This document shows positions 5,071 to 15,582 of a stretch of 32,000 nt of DNA, piece after piece. Source of the stretch: Patescibacteria group bacterium (GTDB lineage Bacteria > Patescibacteriota > Patescibacteriia > 2-01-FULL-39-33); contig JBAZMW010000002.1 of assembly GCA_041649575.1 (NCBI GenBank), positions 180,001 through 212,000 on the forward strand, given 5' to 3'. The notes under the pieces are model-generated. The model made no database searches. It saw only the letters and a program-made list of their open reading frames with translations, and had not been told where the DNA came from. A program made the position numbers and the translations under genes. Within the stretch, counting starts at the first letter, position 1, and each line of letters starts with the position of its first letter.

Positions 5071-5334
5071 ATGGGACTCGTCGCTCCTGACACTCGCGGC
5101 AACGCGTGCTGGCTGATTAAATGCAACAACTGCGGCCATCAGGCGGCTTGGGATGGCTCCAATGCCGAGCAAACCCTTAGCCTGGCCGAGAATGATGGTT
5201 GGACGGTAACTCGAGGCAAGGGCCCAGGTGAGGTGGTCGCTCTGTGCCCCGAATGCAGGAAGAAACAACAGAAAGTCACTCCAGCCGCCATTGTCAGCCT
5301 GATGGATTTCCGCCAAGCATTGCCCAGGCGGTGA
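5071..5334 (+). CDS. Hypothetical 87-aa protein with a four-cysteine zinc-ribbon-like arrangement (CNNC...CPEC); GC-rich cassette gene
   Basis: ATG 5071 is preceded by GGAGGGAG (5059-5066). Cys pairs C18-x2-C21 and C59-x2-C62. It has its own promoter and downstream hairpin. Confidence 0.6.
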   Translation: MGLVAPDTRGNACWLIKCNNCGHQAAWDGSNAEQTLSLAENDGWTVTRGKGPGEVVALCPECRKKQQKVTPAAIVSLMDFRQALPRR

Positions 5335-11239: not shown

Positions 11240-12595
11240 ATGAGAAAAAACTACCAATTAGCGGTATTATTTTGTTTTTTGCTTTTTTTGCTTTTACCCT
11301 TTACGGTTGGGGCGGCCGATTTCGATCCCGATTATCTGATTTCTGATACCGAATTGGCCAATCACAATTCTTTGGACCTGTCTGATATTCAAAGATTTTT
11401 GGACAAAAGAAATGGCACGCTCAAGGGTTATGTCACCCTTGATAAAGAAGGCAACCTAAAAACCGCCGTCCAGGCTTTTTTCGAGGTGGCGCAGAAGTGG
11501 CTGATCAACCCCAAATATTTGTTGGTGTTGGTACAAAAAGAGCAAAGCTTACTCGAAGATACCAATCCCTCCCAGGGCCAATATGACCGCGCTACCGGTT
11601 ATGGTTGTCCCGATACCGGCGGTTGCGACGACCGCTGGAAGGGCTTCTATCGCCAGGTAAATTCCGCCGCGGCTCAAACCCGCTATTATCTGGACAATAT
11701 TAATGAGTTTACTTATCAGCCGGGAAAGGCCTATAATATTGACGGGCAGTCTGTCACTCCCAAAAACACCGCCACCGCCGGTTTGTACAATTATACCCCC
11801 CATCTTCACGGCAATCAGAATTTCTGGAACCTTTGGAACCAGTATTTTGGCAAAAAATGGCCTAATGGCGCCCTGTTGCAAGCCGAAGGCGACGCTAGCA
11901 AGGTTTATTTGATTGAAAACGAAGAAAAACGCGAAATTATATCCAAAGCGGTTTTTGCCTCCCGCTTCGACAGTAAAAAAATAATCACTGTCGGCCAGGA
12001 AGATCTGGATTCTTATGACTCTGGCGTGCCCATAAAATACCTCAATTTTTCCCTGCTTAAAAGCAGCCGCGGCGACATTTACATGATCGTTGACGACCAA
12101 AAAAGAAAAATTGCCAGTCAGGAAGTTTTCAAAAAAATCGGTTTTATGGAAGATGAGGTGATTCCGGCGGATGACAGCGAGCTGGGCCTTTATAAAGACG
12201 GTCCCGAGATTACCAGCTATACCCTTTATCCCGCCGGGACGCTTTTGCAAGACAGCCAGACTAAACAAATTTTTTATGTCATCAGCGGCAAGAAGCGGCC
12301 AATAATCAATAAAGAAATCCTGGCTTTTAATTTTAACGGCTTGCCGGTCAAAAAAGTTTCTCCCGTCGAACTGGAATCGTACCGCTCTGGCAATCCCGTC
12401 ACCTTGCCCGATGGTGAACTGGTCAAAATCAAGGGAGCCAATACGGTTTACGTGATTTCCAATGGCAAACGTCTGCCGATTTTCAACGCCAAGATTTTCG
12501 AAAAAATGAATTATAAATGGACTAACGTCAAAACCGTTTCCAAAGAGACCCTGGAAGTTCATGAGCTGGGTCAAACCATCACCGGCGATTGGTAA
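11240..12595 (+). CDS. Secreted hypothetical protein (451 aa) with four C-terminal tandem repeats of about 55 aa
   Basis: Signal peptide MRKNYQLAVLFCFLLFLLLPFTVGAADF. Repeats begin KVYLIENEEKREI, DIYMIVDDQKRKI, QIFYVISGKKRPI and TVYVISNGKRLPI. Confidence 0.8.
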   Translation: MRKNYQLAVLFCFLLFLLLPFTVGAADFDPDYLISDTELANHNSLDLSDIQRFLDKRNGTLKGYVTLDKEGNLKTAVQAFFEVAQKWLINPKYLLVLVQKEQSLLEDTNPSQGQYDRATGYGCPDTGGCDDRWKGFYRQVNSAAAQTRYYLDNINEFTYQPGKAYNIDGQSVTPKNTATAGLYNYTPHLHGNQNFWNLWNQYFGKKWPNGALLQAEGDASKVYLIENEEKREIISKAVFASRFDSKKIITVGQEDLDSYDSGVPIKYLNFSLLKSSRGDIYMIVDDQKRKIASQEVFKKIGFMEDEVIPADDSELGLYKDGPEITSYTLYPAGTLLQDSQTKQIFYVISGKKRPIINKEILAFNFNGLPVKKVSPVELESYRSGNPVTLPDGELVKIKGANTVYVISNGKRLPIFNAKIFEKMNYKWTNVKTVSKETLEVHELGQTITGDW

Positions 12596-12624
12596 AGATT
12601 GCTATCTAAATTAATCAAAAACAT

Positions 12625-13416
12625 ATGTCTCTAGTTTTCGCGGCCATTGTGCCGCATCCGCCAATTCTCATACCCACCATTGGCAAAGAAAATTTGGAAA
12701 AGATACAAAAAACCCAAAAAGCCATGGAGCGTTTGGAGCAAGACCTTTATGCTTCCAAACCAGACATTCTAATCATAATTTCCCCTCATGGCGAAGTTCA
12801 GCATGATTTTTTTACCATCAACTTGTCTAATCAGTACCAAATTAGTTTTAACGACTTCGGCGATTTTGCCACCAAATTAGAAACCGGTGGCGACACTATC
12901 CTTATCTCGGTCAATAAAGAAAAAATCAACAGCCGCTCCCCTATCAATATTATTTCCGAGCCTAACTTGGACCACGGAATTGGCGTCCCTTTTTATTATT
13001 TGGGCCAACACCTCAAGGAAACCAAGCTGATCCCGATTTATTTTTCTTTGCTGGATAATTTGGCTCATTTGGAATTCGGCAAAAATCTGAAAGAGGCCAT
13101 TATGGGCACCGAAAAAAGAGTGGCCGTGGTGGCTTCCGGCGATTTGTCGCACTGCCTGACCGAAAACGCGCCAGCGCCTTTTAGTCCGGCTGGCAAAGAA
13201 TTTGATGAAAAATTAATCGCTTTGCTCAAAAATGGCGATACCCAGGGGGTGATTAATCTGGAACCAAAATTCATCGAAAGCGCCGCCGAATGCGGCCTGC
13301 GTTCGATTTTAATTCTTTTGGGAGTTTTGAATAACATTAGCTTTCAATCGGAAATCTTGAGTTATGAGGCGCCTTTCGGCGTCGGCTACCTGGTGGCGAA
13401 TTTCAAATTGGAATAA
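12625..13416 (+). CDS. LigB/Memo-superfamily protein (class III extradiol dioxygenase-like); possible AmrB-type partner of the radical SAM enzyme
   Basis: N-terminus FAAIVPHPPILIPTIG, then ISPHGEV, DHGIGVP and ASGDLSH motifs typical of the LigB-type fold. Confidence 0.6.
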   Translation: MSLVFAAIVPHPPILIPTIGKENLEKIQKTQKAMERLEQDLYASKPDILIIISPHGEVQHDFFTINLSNQYQISFNDFGDFATKLETGGDTILISVNKEKINSRSPINIISEPNLDHGIGVPFYYLGQHLKETKLIPIYFSLLDNLAHLEFGKNLKEAIMGTEKRVAVVASGDLSHCLTENAPAPFSPAGKEFDEKLIALLKNGDTQGVINLEPKFIESAAECGLRSILILLGVLNNISFQSEILSYEAPFGVGYLVANFKLE

Positions 13417-13430
13417 AGATTAATTTTTTA

Positions 13431-13457
13431 AAACCGCCCTCGTTGGCGGTTTTTTTA
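13431..13457. terminator. Bidirectional intrinsic terminator
   Basis: AAACCGCC-ctcgtt-GGCGGTTT flanked by an A-run and a T-run, lying between convergent genes. Confidence 0.8.
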
Positions 13458-13715
13458 TTTGTCTGCCAGTACTTTAAAAAAATATTTCCACCTCTCTTTT
13501 TGCGCCAGTTCCTTGGTCTCGTTTAAGGCTCTCTCTATTATAATCTGGTTATTTTCTTTGCAAACCTTAAAAACAGAATTCCGCTTAAAAGCCGGCACGC
13601 CCAGCTCCTTGATTATTTTTAGAGCCAGTTCTTGCCATTGGTAAGCGGGCGGCTTTTTTGACTGCCGATTGGTAAAAATATCACTTAATGATTGAAGTCC
13701 TTTATTGTCTTTCAT
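13455..13715 (-). CDS. Hypothetical 86-aa protein
   Basis: ATG at 13715 is preferred over the TTG at 13769 used by the track. No family recognised. Confidence 0.45.
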   Translation of the reverse strand: MKDNKGLQSLSDIFTNRQSKKPPAYQWQELALKIIKELGVPAFKRNSVFKVCKENNQIIIERALNETKELAQKERWKYFFKVLADK

Positions 13716-13803
13716 ACCTAAGGAATTGTAATGGGATTTCTTTAAAAAGTTAAGAGGTGCGAAAATCAAGTAATATTTTGCACCTCGTTTTTATTTAAAA
13801 AAA

Positions 13804-13833
13804 TTGACAAAACTTAGTATAAATTAATATAAT
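13804..13833 (+). promoter_or_regulatory. Sigma70-type promoter TTGACA-N18-TATAAT upstream of def
   Basis: TTGACA at 13804-13809 and TATAAT at 13828-13833. Confidence 0.6.
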
Positions 13834-13854: not shown

Positions 13855-14313
13855 ATGCTTCAAATACTAACCAATCCCAATCCAATTTTGCGCCAAAAAT
13901 CAGTCTTGGTCGCCGATTTTACTAATGAAGAAGTCCAGAAACTGGTGCCGGAAATGGCCGAGACTATGCTCAAAAAAGACGGGCTCGGTCTGGCCGCGCC
14001 ACAAATTGGTAAAAATATCAGATTGATAGTAGTGAGCCATAAGGATGGTGTTTTGGCTCTGTTTAACCCAAAAATTATTAAAAAATCTTGGTTTAAAGAA
14101 TGGGGCGAAGAGGGTTGTTTGTCTCTGCCGGATAAATACGGCGAAGTCAAACGTCATAAGAATATAACTGTAAAATTCGATGATACCACAGGCAAATCAG
14201 AATGTTTGGAAGCCAAGGGTTTATTGGCCAGAGTAATTCAGCATGAAATCGACCACTTGGACGGAGTTTTGTTTATTGATAAAGCTAGAAAAATCGTAAA
14301 TATCGACAAATAA
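13855..14313 (+). CDS. def: Peptide deformylase
   Basis: Three canonical motifs: GLGLAAPQIG, EGCLS and QHEIDHLDG. Confidence 0.95.
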   Translation: MLQILTNPNPILRQKSVLVADFTNEEVQKLVPEMAETMLKKDGLGLAAPQIGKNIRLIVVSHKDGVLALFNPKIIKKSWFKEWGEEGCLSLPDKYGEVKRHKNITVKFDDTTGKSECLEAKGLLARVIQHEIDHLDGVLFIDKARKIVNIDK

Positions 14314-14347
14314 AACACGAAGAACGGGCACCGGTTGGCACCCGTTC
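14311..14347 (-). terminator. Intrinsic terminator for the minus-strand small membrane protein gene
   Basis: GAACGGG (14322-14328) / CCCGTTC (14341-14347). On the minus strand the stem is followed by TTCGTGTTTTA; no T-run follows on the plus strand. Confidence 0.6.
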
Positions 14348-14378
14348 GGTTCCACAGAACAAACTCACGTCGCCTTGA

Positions 14379-14579
14379 TCACGCTGGCTCCAGCAGTCTG
14401 AAGCATATCATCATGCCGATGAAGCAACAGGCCGCCACAACCATTAAGCGCTCGATTCTCCTTTCCCAACCATGCCTCATGTTTTCATAGACGAGTGGGA
14501 TCGCAAAGCCGGAGAATAAGCCAATTAGGCCAAGAACCACCATGACCACTAGCAATGCACCGTGATATGCGGTAAACAT
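14379..14579 (-). CDS. Hypothetical 66-aa two-TM membrane protein; GC-richer cassette gene antisense between def and fmt
   Basis: ATG 14579 with AGGAGGG (14594-14588) 8 nt upstream. Two hydrophobic helices (ALLVVMVVLGLIGLFSGFAIPLV and LMVVAACCFIGMMICF) separated by the charged loop YENMRHGWERRIER. Confidence 0.65.
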   Translation of the reverse strand: MFTAYHGALLVVMVVLGLIGLFSGFAIPLVYENMRHGWERRIERLMVVAACCFIGMMICFRLLEPA

Positions 14580-14621
14580 GTCCAAGACCCTCCTGTGTCT
14601 GTTGAAATTGTGCTTGTCAAA

Positions 14622-14650
14622 AACATACCATTAAAATTTACAAATGTCAA
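14622..14650 (-). promoter_or_regulatory. Sigma70-type promoter TTGACA-N17-TATGTT for the small membrane protein gene; the -35 overlaps the fmt start codon
   Basis: The minus strand reads TTGACA (14650-14645), a 17-nt spacer, then TATGTT (14627-14622). The fmt ATG is at 14644-14646. Confidence 0.5.
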
Positions 14651-15582
14651 AAACAAAAATCATCTTTGCCGGCACGCCGGAATTCGCCGTGCCGTTTTTA
14701 AAAGCTCTGACCGAAGACTCCGATTTTGAAATTATTGGCGTCATTACTCAACCTGATAAGCCTTCCGGCCGAAAACAAGAATTTGTCCCCTCACCTATCA
14801 AACAACTGGCTCTGAAACTTGGTTTAAAAATTTGGCAACCAGGCAGTGTTAAGAATAATCCCGAGTTAGAAAAAGAATTAAAACAAGTTAGTCCGGATTT
14901 ATTAGTAGTAGTCGCCTTCGGTCAAATTATTCCGCAAGAAATTTTGGACTTAGCCAAATTTGGCAATATTAATGTCCACCCCTCTCTTTTACCCAAATAC
15001 CGCGGGGCTTCTCCGGTTCAGAGTGCCATTTTGACCGGCGAAACAAAGACGGGTGTCACTATCATGCTGATGGACCAAAAAATGGATCACGGGCCAATTT
15101 TGAGCCAAAAAACCCTACTCCTTAATAGCGAAGAAACCAATCAATCCCTACACCAGGCCTTGGCAGAGCTGGGGGTGCCGCTTTTACTGACCACCATCAA
15201 AGGCTTTTTGGGGGGTAAAATTAAGCCCCAGGAACAAAATCACGAGTCAGCCACTTTTTGCCAGACCATAACCAAAGACAGTGCCAAAATTGATTGGTCC
15301 AACGCGGCAATTGAGATCAAAAGAAAAATTTATGCTTTTTATCCCTGGCCAGGCGTTTGGGCTATTTGGGGTGGCAAGAGGATCAAGTTTTTTCCGCCAG
15401 CAGAAATCGTCAATGATTCAAAAAAACCGGGTGAAATTTTTTTGTCTGGAGACGGCTTAGCTGTTGGTTGTGGCCAAGGGTCGTTGAAAATTTCCAAGTT
15501 GCAACTGGAAGGCAAAAAAGAAATGACCGCCCAAGAGTTTTTGCGCGGCTATAACAAAGTTGTTGGTGAAATTCTAAAATAA
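14644..15582 (+). CDS. fmt: Methionyl-tRNA formyltransferase
   Basis: IIFAGTPEFAVP, N-terminal formyltransferase domain with NVHPSLLPKYRGASPVQ, and a C-terminal Fmt domain; 312 aa. Confidence 0.95.
   Translation: MSKTKIIFAGTPEFAVPFLKALTEDSDFEIIGVITQPDKPSGRKQEFVPSPIKQLALKLGLKIWQPGSVKNNPELEKELKQVSPDLLVVVAFGQIIPQEILDLAKFGNINVHPSLLPKYRGASPVQSAILTGETKTGVTIMLMDQKMDHGPILSQKTLLLNSEETNQSLHQALAELGVPLLLTTIKGFLGGKIKPQEQNHESATFCQTITKDSAKIDWSNAAIEIKRKIYAFYPWPGVWAIWGGKRIKFFPPAEIVNDSKKPGEIFLSGDGLAVGCGQGSLKISKLQLEGKKEMTAQEFLRGYNKVVGEILK

Follow-up and report, generated by a model that had tools for sequence, protein, structure and literature searches.

A putative autonomous minus-strand unit between def and fmt in a Patescibacteria genome, with its promoter anchored in the fmt start codon

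Accessory small-protein units and the def-fmt spacer

Class II holins and pinholins have two transmembrane helices and a length of about 65-95 amino acids (aa). In phage genomes, a "moron" is an autonomous unit of extra DNA that carries its own promoter and terminator, and whose GC content, unlike that of its surroundings, implies transfer (PMC3594210). Type I toxins are usually shorter than 60 aa and have a single transmembrane helix (PMC12648545). Here, we describe a spacer of 330 nucleotides (nt) between the def and fmt genes of a Patescibacteria group bacterium (GenBank assembly GCA_041649575.1), located within positions 180,001-212,000 of contig JBAZMW010000002.1; this whole stretch of 32,000 nt is referred to below as the window. 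The products of def and fmt serve one formyl-methionine cycle and are made together in most bacteria. In this genome, the spacer between them holds a minus-strand promoter, a Shine-Dalgarno (SD) site, an open reading frame (ORF) of 66 codons, and a terminator. Our reading, to which we give a probability of roughly 0.6, is that these elements would form a lineage-specific, self-contained minus-strand transcription unit, which an ancestor of this organism gained between the two genes.

Like the phage morons, of which HK97 gene 15, encoding a small inner-membrane protein, is an example, this unit is an independent combination of promoter, gene, and terminator whose predicted product is a small membrane protein; it separates, as additional DNA, genes that lie side by side in collinear relatives, and its GC content is somewhat above that of its flanks. 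Unlike the morons, it lies in a bacterial chromosome between housekeeping genes, with no phage genes nearby and no phage, viral, or PHROG match, its composition is within the genome's own range, and its promoter is half-built from the start codon of a neighbour. When GC content is compared as for morons, the value of 0.49 stands against 0.40 in the flanks, but the GC content at third codon positions (GC3) of the ORF is 0.61, which is only 1.3 standard deviations above the genome mean of 0.50. A foreign origin is not supported by composition, as both the GC content of the ORF (0.49) and its GC3 fall within the range of the genome's genes. The predicted product shares its two helices and its 66 aa with the class II holins and pinholins, whereas its neighbours are def and fmt, without a lysis cassette, and its best match among the PHROGs has an E-value of 0.23, to a family of unknown function. 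The unit is another case of an autonomous accessory small-membrane-protein cassette; what is new is that its promoter takes its -35 box from the fmt start codon, and that this layout recurs in other lineages with unrelated peptides.

The features of the locus, in window coordinates, are as follows.

13855-14313, plus strand: def (peptide deformylase), 152 aa (Pfam Pep_deformylase, PF01327, E-value 1.5e-49)
14314-14643: def-fmt spacer of 330 nt, holding the putatively added unit (GC content 0.49, against 0.40 in the flanks)
14312-14347, minus strand: intrinsic terminator, an 11-pair hairpin (14347-14322) and a T-run into the def stop codon
14379-14579, minus strand: ORF of 66 codons plus stop, predicted two-helix membrane protein, an orphan (from the ORF list, hydropathy, AlphaFold2, and codon score)
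14594-14588, minus strand: SD site AGGAGGG, with the ATG 8 nt downstream
14650-14622, minus strand: promoter TTGACA-17-TG-n-TATGTT, a 10/12 match with TG before the -10 box
14622-14627, minus strand: -10 box of this promoter
14632-14637, plus strand: TAAAAT, a -10-like box that ends 6 nt before the fmt ATG and is a candidate promoter for leaderless fmt mRNA
14644-15582, plus strand: fmt (methionyl-tRNA formyltransferase), 312 aa, without an SD site (Pfam Formyl_trans_N, PF00551, E-value 1.1e-40; Formyl_trans_C, PF02911, E-value 9.8e-27)

Signals of the unit and its predicted product

A preliminary description of this DNA had placed def and fmt 330 nt apart and had reported, between them, a minus-strand gene for a 66-aa protein with a perfect-core SD site (AGGAGGG), a promoter TTGACA-N17-TATGTT whose -35 box lies over the fmt start, and a terminator (14322-14347) near the def stop codon. 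All of these features were found where it had located them, and the T-run that follows the terminator hairpin reaches the stop codon itself. Promoter, SD site, ORF, and terminator together fill the spacer exactly, in the correct order and with the correct spacing; both a promoter and a terminator of its own are thus present in the unit.

The -35 box TTGACA (14650-14645) overlaps the fmt ATG and is the reverse complement of TGTCAA within ATG-TCA-AAA, the sequence of fmt codons 1 to 3. In other words, the first codons of fmt themselves supply the -35 box of the minus-strand promoter. Sites composed of TTGACA, 17 or 18 nt, and TGnTAnnnT number 53 in the genome, of which the one described here is the only one in the window, whereas the reversed control gives none. 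When a 25-nt pattern was taken from the unit promoter, about 85 near matches were found, distributed over 64 of the 401 genomes of the class, against about 16 for the reversed control; judged by these matches, the unit promoter fits a putative promoter consensus of the whole class. Promoters across the class seem to share a consensus that extends past the hexamers and consists of TTGACA, a T-rich stretch, AAATTTTTA, TG, n, and TA. As for the SD site, 16 of the 66 AGGAGGG sites in the genome lead into an ATG with an ORF of 50 aa or more, whereas the reversed motif does so at 3 of its 50 sites. Both signals are significant.

In the minus-strand RNA, the stem of the terminator contains two G-U pairs and is followed by a U-run, whereas in the plus-strand RNA these two pairs turn into mismatches and no U-run follows. 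The hairpin should therefore act as a one-way terminator. Membership in the genome's family of GC-rich hairpin repeats was considered and rejected for this hairpin, because it is unique in the genome even when three mismatches are allowed.

From these signals, we infer the following course of transcription, translation, membrane insertion, and promoter competition. A strong sigma-70-type promoter, with its -35 box from the first codons of fmt and a TG-extended -10 box in the spacer, would initiate transcription near 14615 and give an RNA of about 300 nt. The AGGAGGG site would drive the translation of a 66-residue two-helix hairpin in the cell membrane, with its Arg-rich loop probably in the cytoplasm, and the one-way terminator would end the transcript at the def stop codon. 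The insertion would have undone the overlap that def and fmt usually have, along with any coupling of their translation, and fmt would now be made as a leaderless mRNA from the TAAAAT box 6 nt before its ATG. The two promoters would stand back to back, with RNA polymerase occupying one at a time, and read-through from def would be antisense to the mRNA of the small gene.

The hydropathy profile of the 66-aa product has two hydrophobic stretches, at residues of about 5-31 and 45-63, which flank a loop with four Arg residues, and AlphaFold2, run on the single sequence, places helices at residues 2-34 and 39-63 with a mean predicted local distance difference test score of 75.5. The product is predicted to be a two-helix membrane hairpin, and the two methods bear out the hairpin-type small membrane protein proposed in the preliminary description. 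By the positive-inside rule, the Arg-rich loop would be cytoplasmic and both ends would face outward.

Database searches with the 66-aa sequence returned no match of any family. A word-indexed search of 5.8 billion clusters found only the protein itself, and a full HMMER scan of 1.84 billion representatives found only the protein itself and P0002, which was rejected as a homologue because it is a translated tandem repeat. The best Pfam match scored 16 bits, below the cut-off of 27, nothing significant was found in NCBIfam, PADLOC, or the PDB sequences, and every E-value in a Foldseek comparison with the PDB was above 4. No homologue was found in collections of viral contigs and genome contigs or in a six-frame search of 60 relatives. 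One weak match within the genome itself (E-value 0.008) was rejected as a paralogue, being a low-complexity match to an implausible ORF. At the DNA level, the spacer is present in a single copy in the genome and has no copy in phage or plasmid records, and no exact 51-mer was matched in metagenome contigs.

Because the protein is small and hydrophobic and its gene has a strong promoter, it might also belong to a type I toxin-antitoxin-like module, in which it would damage the membrane and the read-through RNA from def to fmt would serve as the antitoxin. Like the type I toxins and other small membrane proteins reviewed in PMC12648545, the predicted product is hydrophobic and shorter than 100 aa, would be made from its own short mRNA, and could be faced by a full antisense transcript. 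Such a transcript is plausible because the hairpin does not stop plus-strand transcripts, and the minimum-free-energy fold pairs the SD site with a distant part of the RNA. However, this pairing is absent from the centroid structure, no promoter-like site for a dedicated antitoxin RNA lies on the plus strand within 14314-14600, which leaves read-through from def as the sole candidate, the 66 aa and two helices differ from the size and the single helix usual for these toxins (PMC12648545), and PADLOC, Pfam, and NCBIfam give no family match. We consider such a module very improbable, and the toxin idea, which the preliminary description had raised, is unsupported. Our best guess at the job of the protein is that of an accessory small membrane protein in the style of a moron cassette rather than that of a toxin.

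Spacing of def and fmt in relatives and recurrence of the layout

Among the 27 relatives in which def lies upstream of fmt, 24 have a gap of -23 to +45 nt between the two genes, and the same-family relatives with both genes in the fetched locus all fall within this tight range. The gap is 50 nt or less in 48 of 67 further members of the class, and about three quarters of the 95 def-fmt loci in the class have a gap of this size. The closest known relative (L041), whose fmt is 65% identical, is collinear with the window, with genes for a 448-aa protein, a LigB/Memo-like protein, an opposite-strand 96-aa protein, def, fmt, a Wzy-like protein, and GT2, and in this relative def and fmt overlap by 8 nt. 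Because def and fmt touch in the relatives, including the collinear one, the 330 nt are best explained as a derived addition in this lineage. In none of the relatives was the unit seen as a native, conserved part of the locus. The earlier claims that def and fmt are normally contiguous and that the gene between them was inserted are therefore upheld in this group, and a lineage-specific addition is supported by the comparison of sequences.

The source genome comprises 920 kb in 5 contigs, of which the window is a part of contig 2, and is 98% complete with a GC content of 44%. The relatives of its fmt are annotated as Patescibacteria, and the nearest, in a search of about 15 billion proteins, is 65% identical, so that the genome represents a lineage without a close sampled relative. 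An integron- or transposon-like insertion was rejected on the basis that neither terminal inverted repeats nor a flanking target duplication is present, with no integrase search made in the genome. An 11-nt direct repeat, TGTCAAAAACA, occurs on the plus strand at 14615-14625 and again at 14645-14655, where it forms part of fmt codons 1 to 4, the copies being 30 nt apart; the upstream copy, which together with a preceding T reads TTG-TCA-AAA-ACA, coincides with the point where the minus-strand transcript is predicted to begin. The genome has about one such close repeat per 8.6 kb, and this one may have been left by the insertion or may be bound by a protein in the manner of an operator.

The recurrence of the layout was surveyed at the def-fmt junctions of 95 genomes of the class, and in another family, f15, of 14 genomes from 8 genera. 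Antisense SD-led ORFs for small hydrophobic proteins were found at only three of the 95 loci, namely this one, L032, and L044; they occur at 3 of the 4 loci whose fmt starts with ATGTCAA, against 0 of the 91 others, although kinship reduces these three to two independent lineages and, with the discovery case removed, a single lineage is left in that sample. In family f15, all five genomes with the fmt start ATGTCAAT carry a unit (L122, L124, L126, L127, and L132, with a gap of 145-363 nt), whereas none of the nine others does. Because the carriers are scattered on the fmt tree, the unit must have been gained or lost three times or more. Two further cases, L174 and L220, came from a scan of all species genomes for the pattern. 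In L174, also from the Patescibacteria, a 12/12 promoter on the fmt ATGTCAA drives, by its position, SD-led genes for proteins of 74 aa (two helices) and 123 aa (four helices), and the upstream neighbour of fmt is a priA-like gene, not def. In L220, the promoter occupies the same position, and the contig ends there.

The unit described here resembles those of f15 and L174 in that the -35 box comes from the fmt ATGTCAA, a -10 box (of the TG type in f15) follows 17-18 nt on, a small membrane ORF is led by an SD site, and a terminator hairpin lies directly against the upstream gene (beside the def stop in f15); often there is also a -10-like box that ends 6 nt before the fmt ATG, with the same spacing in 4 of 6 comparable units. 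It differs from them in its product, since the f15 peptides have one helix and 33-58 aa, those of L174 have two and four helices, and the sequences are unrelated. Indeed, the peptides of different lineages have no sequence similarity to one another. Shared descent with the f15 units, as might be read from a 24/26 match between this promoter and that of L124, was rejected because the 25-nt pattern is a class-wide promoter consensus whose matches, mentioned above, lie at unrelated sites. Within f15, the peptides of L124 (G234) and L126 (G239) have a common acidic C-terminal motif, DD..E-F/Y-Y..E.LAAL, and therefore appear to form a small family. In L174 (2158-2210; JAHIST010000083.1), the fmt frame slips by one base relative to ATGTCAA at a stretch of four G, through either a misassembly or a genuine frameshift.

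The idea that an ATGTCAA start is sufficient for such a unit was rejected, since in one genome of the survey (G010, L014) and in several non-Patescibacteria an fmt with this start lies 2-25 nt behind def, which is also the usual distance for ATGTCAA-initiated fmt genes in other phyla. G010 has the same fmt start as the genome described here and no unit, and the -35 box therefore probably predates the unit. Long gaps in the class can also hold other genes: an antisense DedA-like gene occurs in L052 (G117, 630 nt) and in L086 (G166, 773 nt; 183 aa), and the gap of L037 (G038) contains an ORF for a 179-aa coiled-coil-like protein on the same strand as def and fmt.

From this distribution of sequences, one may speculate that in the Patescibacteria the ATGTCAA start of fmt offers a ready-made -35 box on the opposite strand, which would let antisense genes for small membrane proteins repeatedly settle or arise upstream of fmt, and that the resulting two-way promoter would make the two expressions mutually exclusive; we regard this as rather doubtful. 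It is likewise a tentative suggestion, with the odds against it, that the recurrence reflects a selected regulatory arrangement, or a hotspot for new small genes, instead of unrelated accidents. If the recurrence does reflect selection, the locus would be a case in which very small genomes gain small genes by means of half a promoter in the start codon of a neighbour, and it might act as a switch between the capacity for formylation and a function in the membrane. Otherwise, this is one of many orphan SD-led cassettes, and the class is of interest mainly as a whole, with conserved genes lacking SD sites and young small genes having strong ones.

The recurrence also bears on the possibility that the spacer is a non-functional leftover, that is, acquired DNA in which one frame is open by coincidence, next to chance matches to a promoter and a terminator. 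In its favour, the sequence is an orphan without copies anywhere searched, comparable units decay in relatives, and the length of the ORF is not significant (see below). On the other side, four independent signals fill the spacer in the right order and at the right distances, the promoter type is found at 53 sites against 0 in the control, the layout recurs in other lineages, and genomes of about 0.9 Mb, in which the median gap between long ORFs is 72 nt, keep little junk. We consider a leftover quite unlikely.

Coding evidence, expression of fmt, and neighbouring genes

The coding capacity of the ORF was assessed with a codon log-odds model trained on the long ORFs of the genome. The log-odds are positive in the ORF frame only, at 0.11 bits per codon, a value that is reached by 2% of off-frame windows. 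Coding is thus supported, as far as sequence can tell, by codon usage, by the SD site, and by a promoter type found 53 times against 0, and we think it fairly probable that the ORF is a transcribed and translated gene.

Several observations weigh against an added, functional gene at this place: (i) the length of the ORF is not significant, as 34% of dinucleotide shuffles of the spacer yield an ORF that is as long or longer; (ii) its codon score lies at only the 8th percentile of real gene windows, and is attained by 18% of open hydrophobic off-frame windows; (iii) the 66-aa protein has no homologue among about 15 billion proteins; (iv) two of the five f15 units are decayed (a stop at codon 3, or no SD site), which indicates that such ORFs are dispensable; and (v) the -10 box of fmt has no good -35 partner.

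Some of these observations fit a different explanation, in which the unit is transcribed and the ORF is incidental, the transcript being a non-coding antisense RNA, or the promoter and terminator serving as a pair that insulates or tunes def and fmt by promoter competition and collision. The insignificant length and the missing homologues agree with it, the promoter overlaps the fmt start and the candidate -10 box, the peptides vary by lineage while the promoter layout stays constant, and two f15 loci keep the promoter with a decayed ORF (L126, which has TAG at codon 3, and L127, in which only shifted-frame fragments are left). What speaks for a coding role is the strong SD site at ideal spacing, of a motif that marks real starts in this genome, the codon usage that is positive in the ORF frame only, and the intact SD-led membrane ORFs of four other units. 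Moreover, the fold of the minus strand is only mildly unusual (z -1.9), and a structured RNA in the spacer was rejected, with no Rfam match and a z of 0.1 for the fold of the plus strand. An incidental ORF therefore appears unlikely to us, and we retain the reading of an added minus-strand unit with a translated ORF.

How fmt itself is expressed can be approached through the starts of other genes. The SD 5-mer core is present at the first start of only 5% of the long ORFs in this genome, and conserved genes are rarely SD-led. Across the genome, hexamers of the form TANNNT show a sharp maximum at position -12 relative to the starts of long ORFs, where 61 occur against a background of about 25. 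A -10 box at this spacing is expected for leaderless mRNAs. These counts suggest that a noticeable share of the genome's genes is made as leaderless mRNAs, and fmt, which has TAAAAT at exactly -12, is most likely made in this manner. The def gene has a 12/12 promoter of its own at 13804-13833. Between the -10 box of fmt (14632-14637) and the -10 box of the opposing promoter (14622-14627), the distance is 5 nt, and the -35 region of each promoter lies past the start site of the other; the two overlapping divergent promoters should therefore compete for RNA polymerase. The preliminary description had suggested that head-on transcription might interfere with use of the fmt promoter. Interference remains our reading, but not by head-on collision alone; overlapping divergent promoters, together with possible antisense read-through, would be its cause. 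The def-fmt pair is split here, and fmt appears to rely on a promoter of the leaderless type, the DNA of which is also used by the opposing promoter of an orphan membrane peptide.

In its strong SD site, its orphan product, and its position between genes without SD sites, the unit is similar to other small SD-led ORFs of the genome. Gaps between long ORFs contain 48 ORFs of 25-143 aa that are led by GGAGG; several of them encode paired CxxC motifs (zinc-ribbon-like, including one of 87 aa at 5071-5334 in the window), several encode multi-helix membrane proteins, and many of the gaps are richer in GC than their flanks. The unit is unlike these ORFs in being a single antisense gene that splits a normally overlapping pair and shares promoter space with fmt, and it has no sequence similarity to them.

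The neighbours of the unit in the window are, by Pfam, def, fmt, LigB-like, and Wzy-like genes, and 11240-13416 holds a gene for a 451-aa protein and the LigB/Memo-like gene. In the closest relative, an IS110-type transposase gene (Transposase_20; L041:1335-2690) lies about 3 kb upstream of def and has no counterpart at the matching place of the window. Between the LigB/Memo-like gene and def, a conserved hypothetical gene without a Pfam family occupies 13455-13769 on the minus strand. Its product is 61% identical to that of the 96-aa gene at the equivalent position in L041, and residue 19 of the listed ORF, a Met, is probably where it truly begins.

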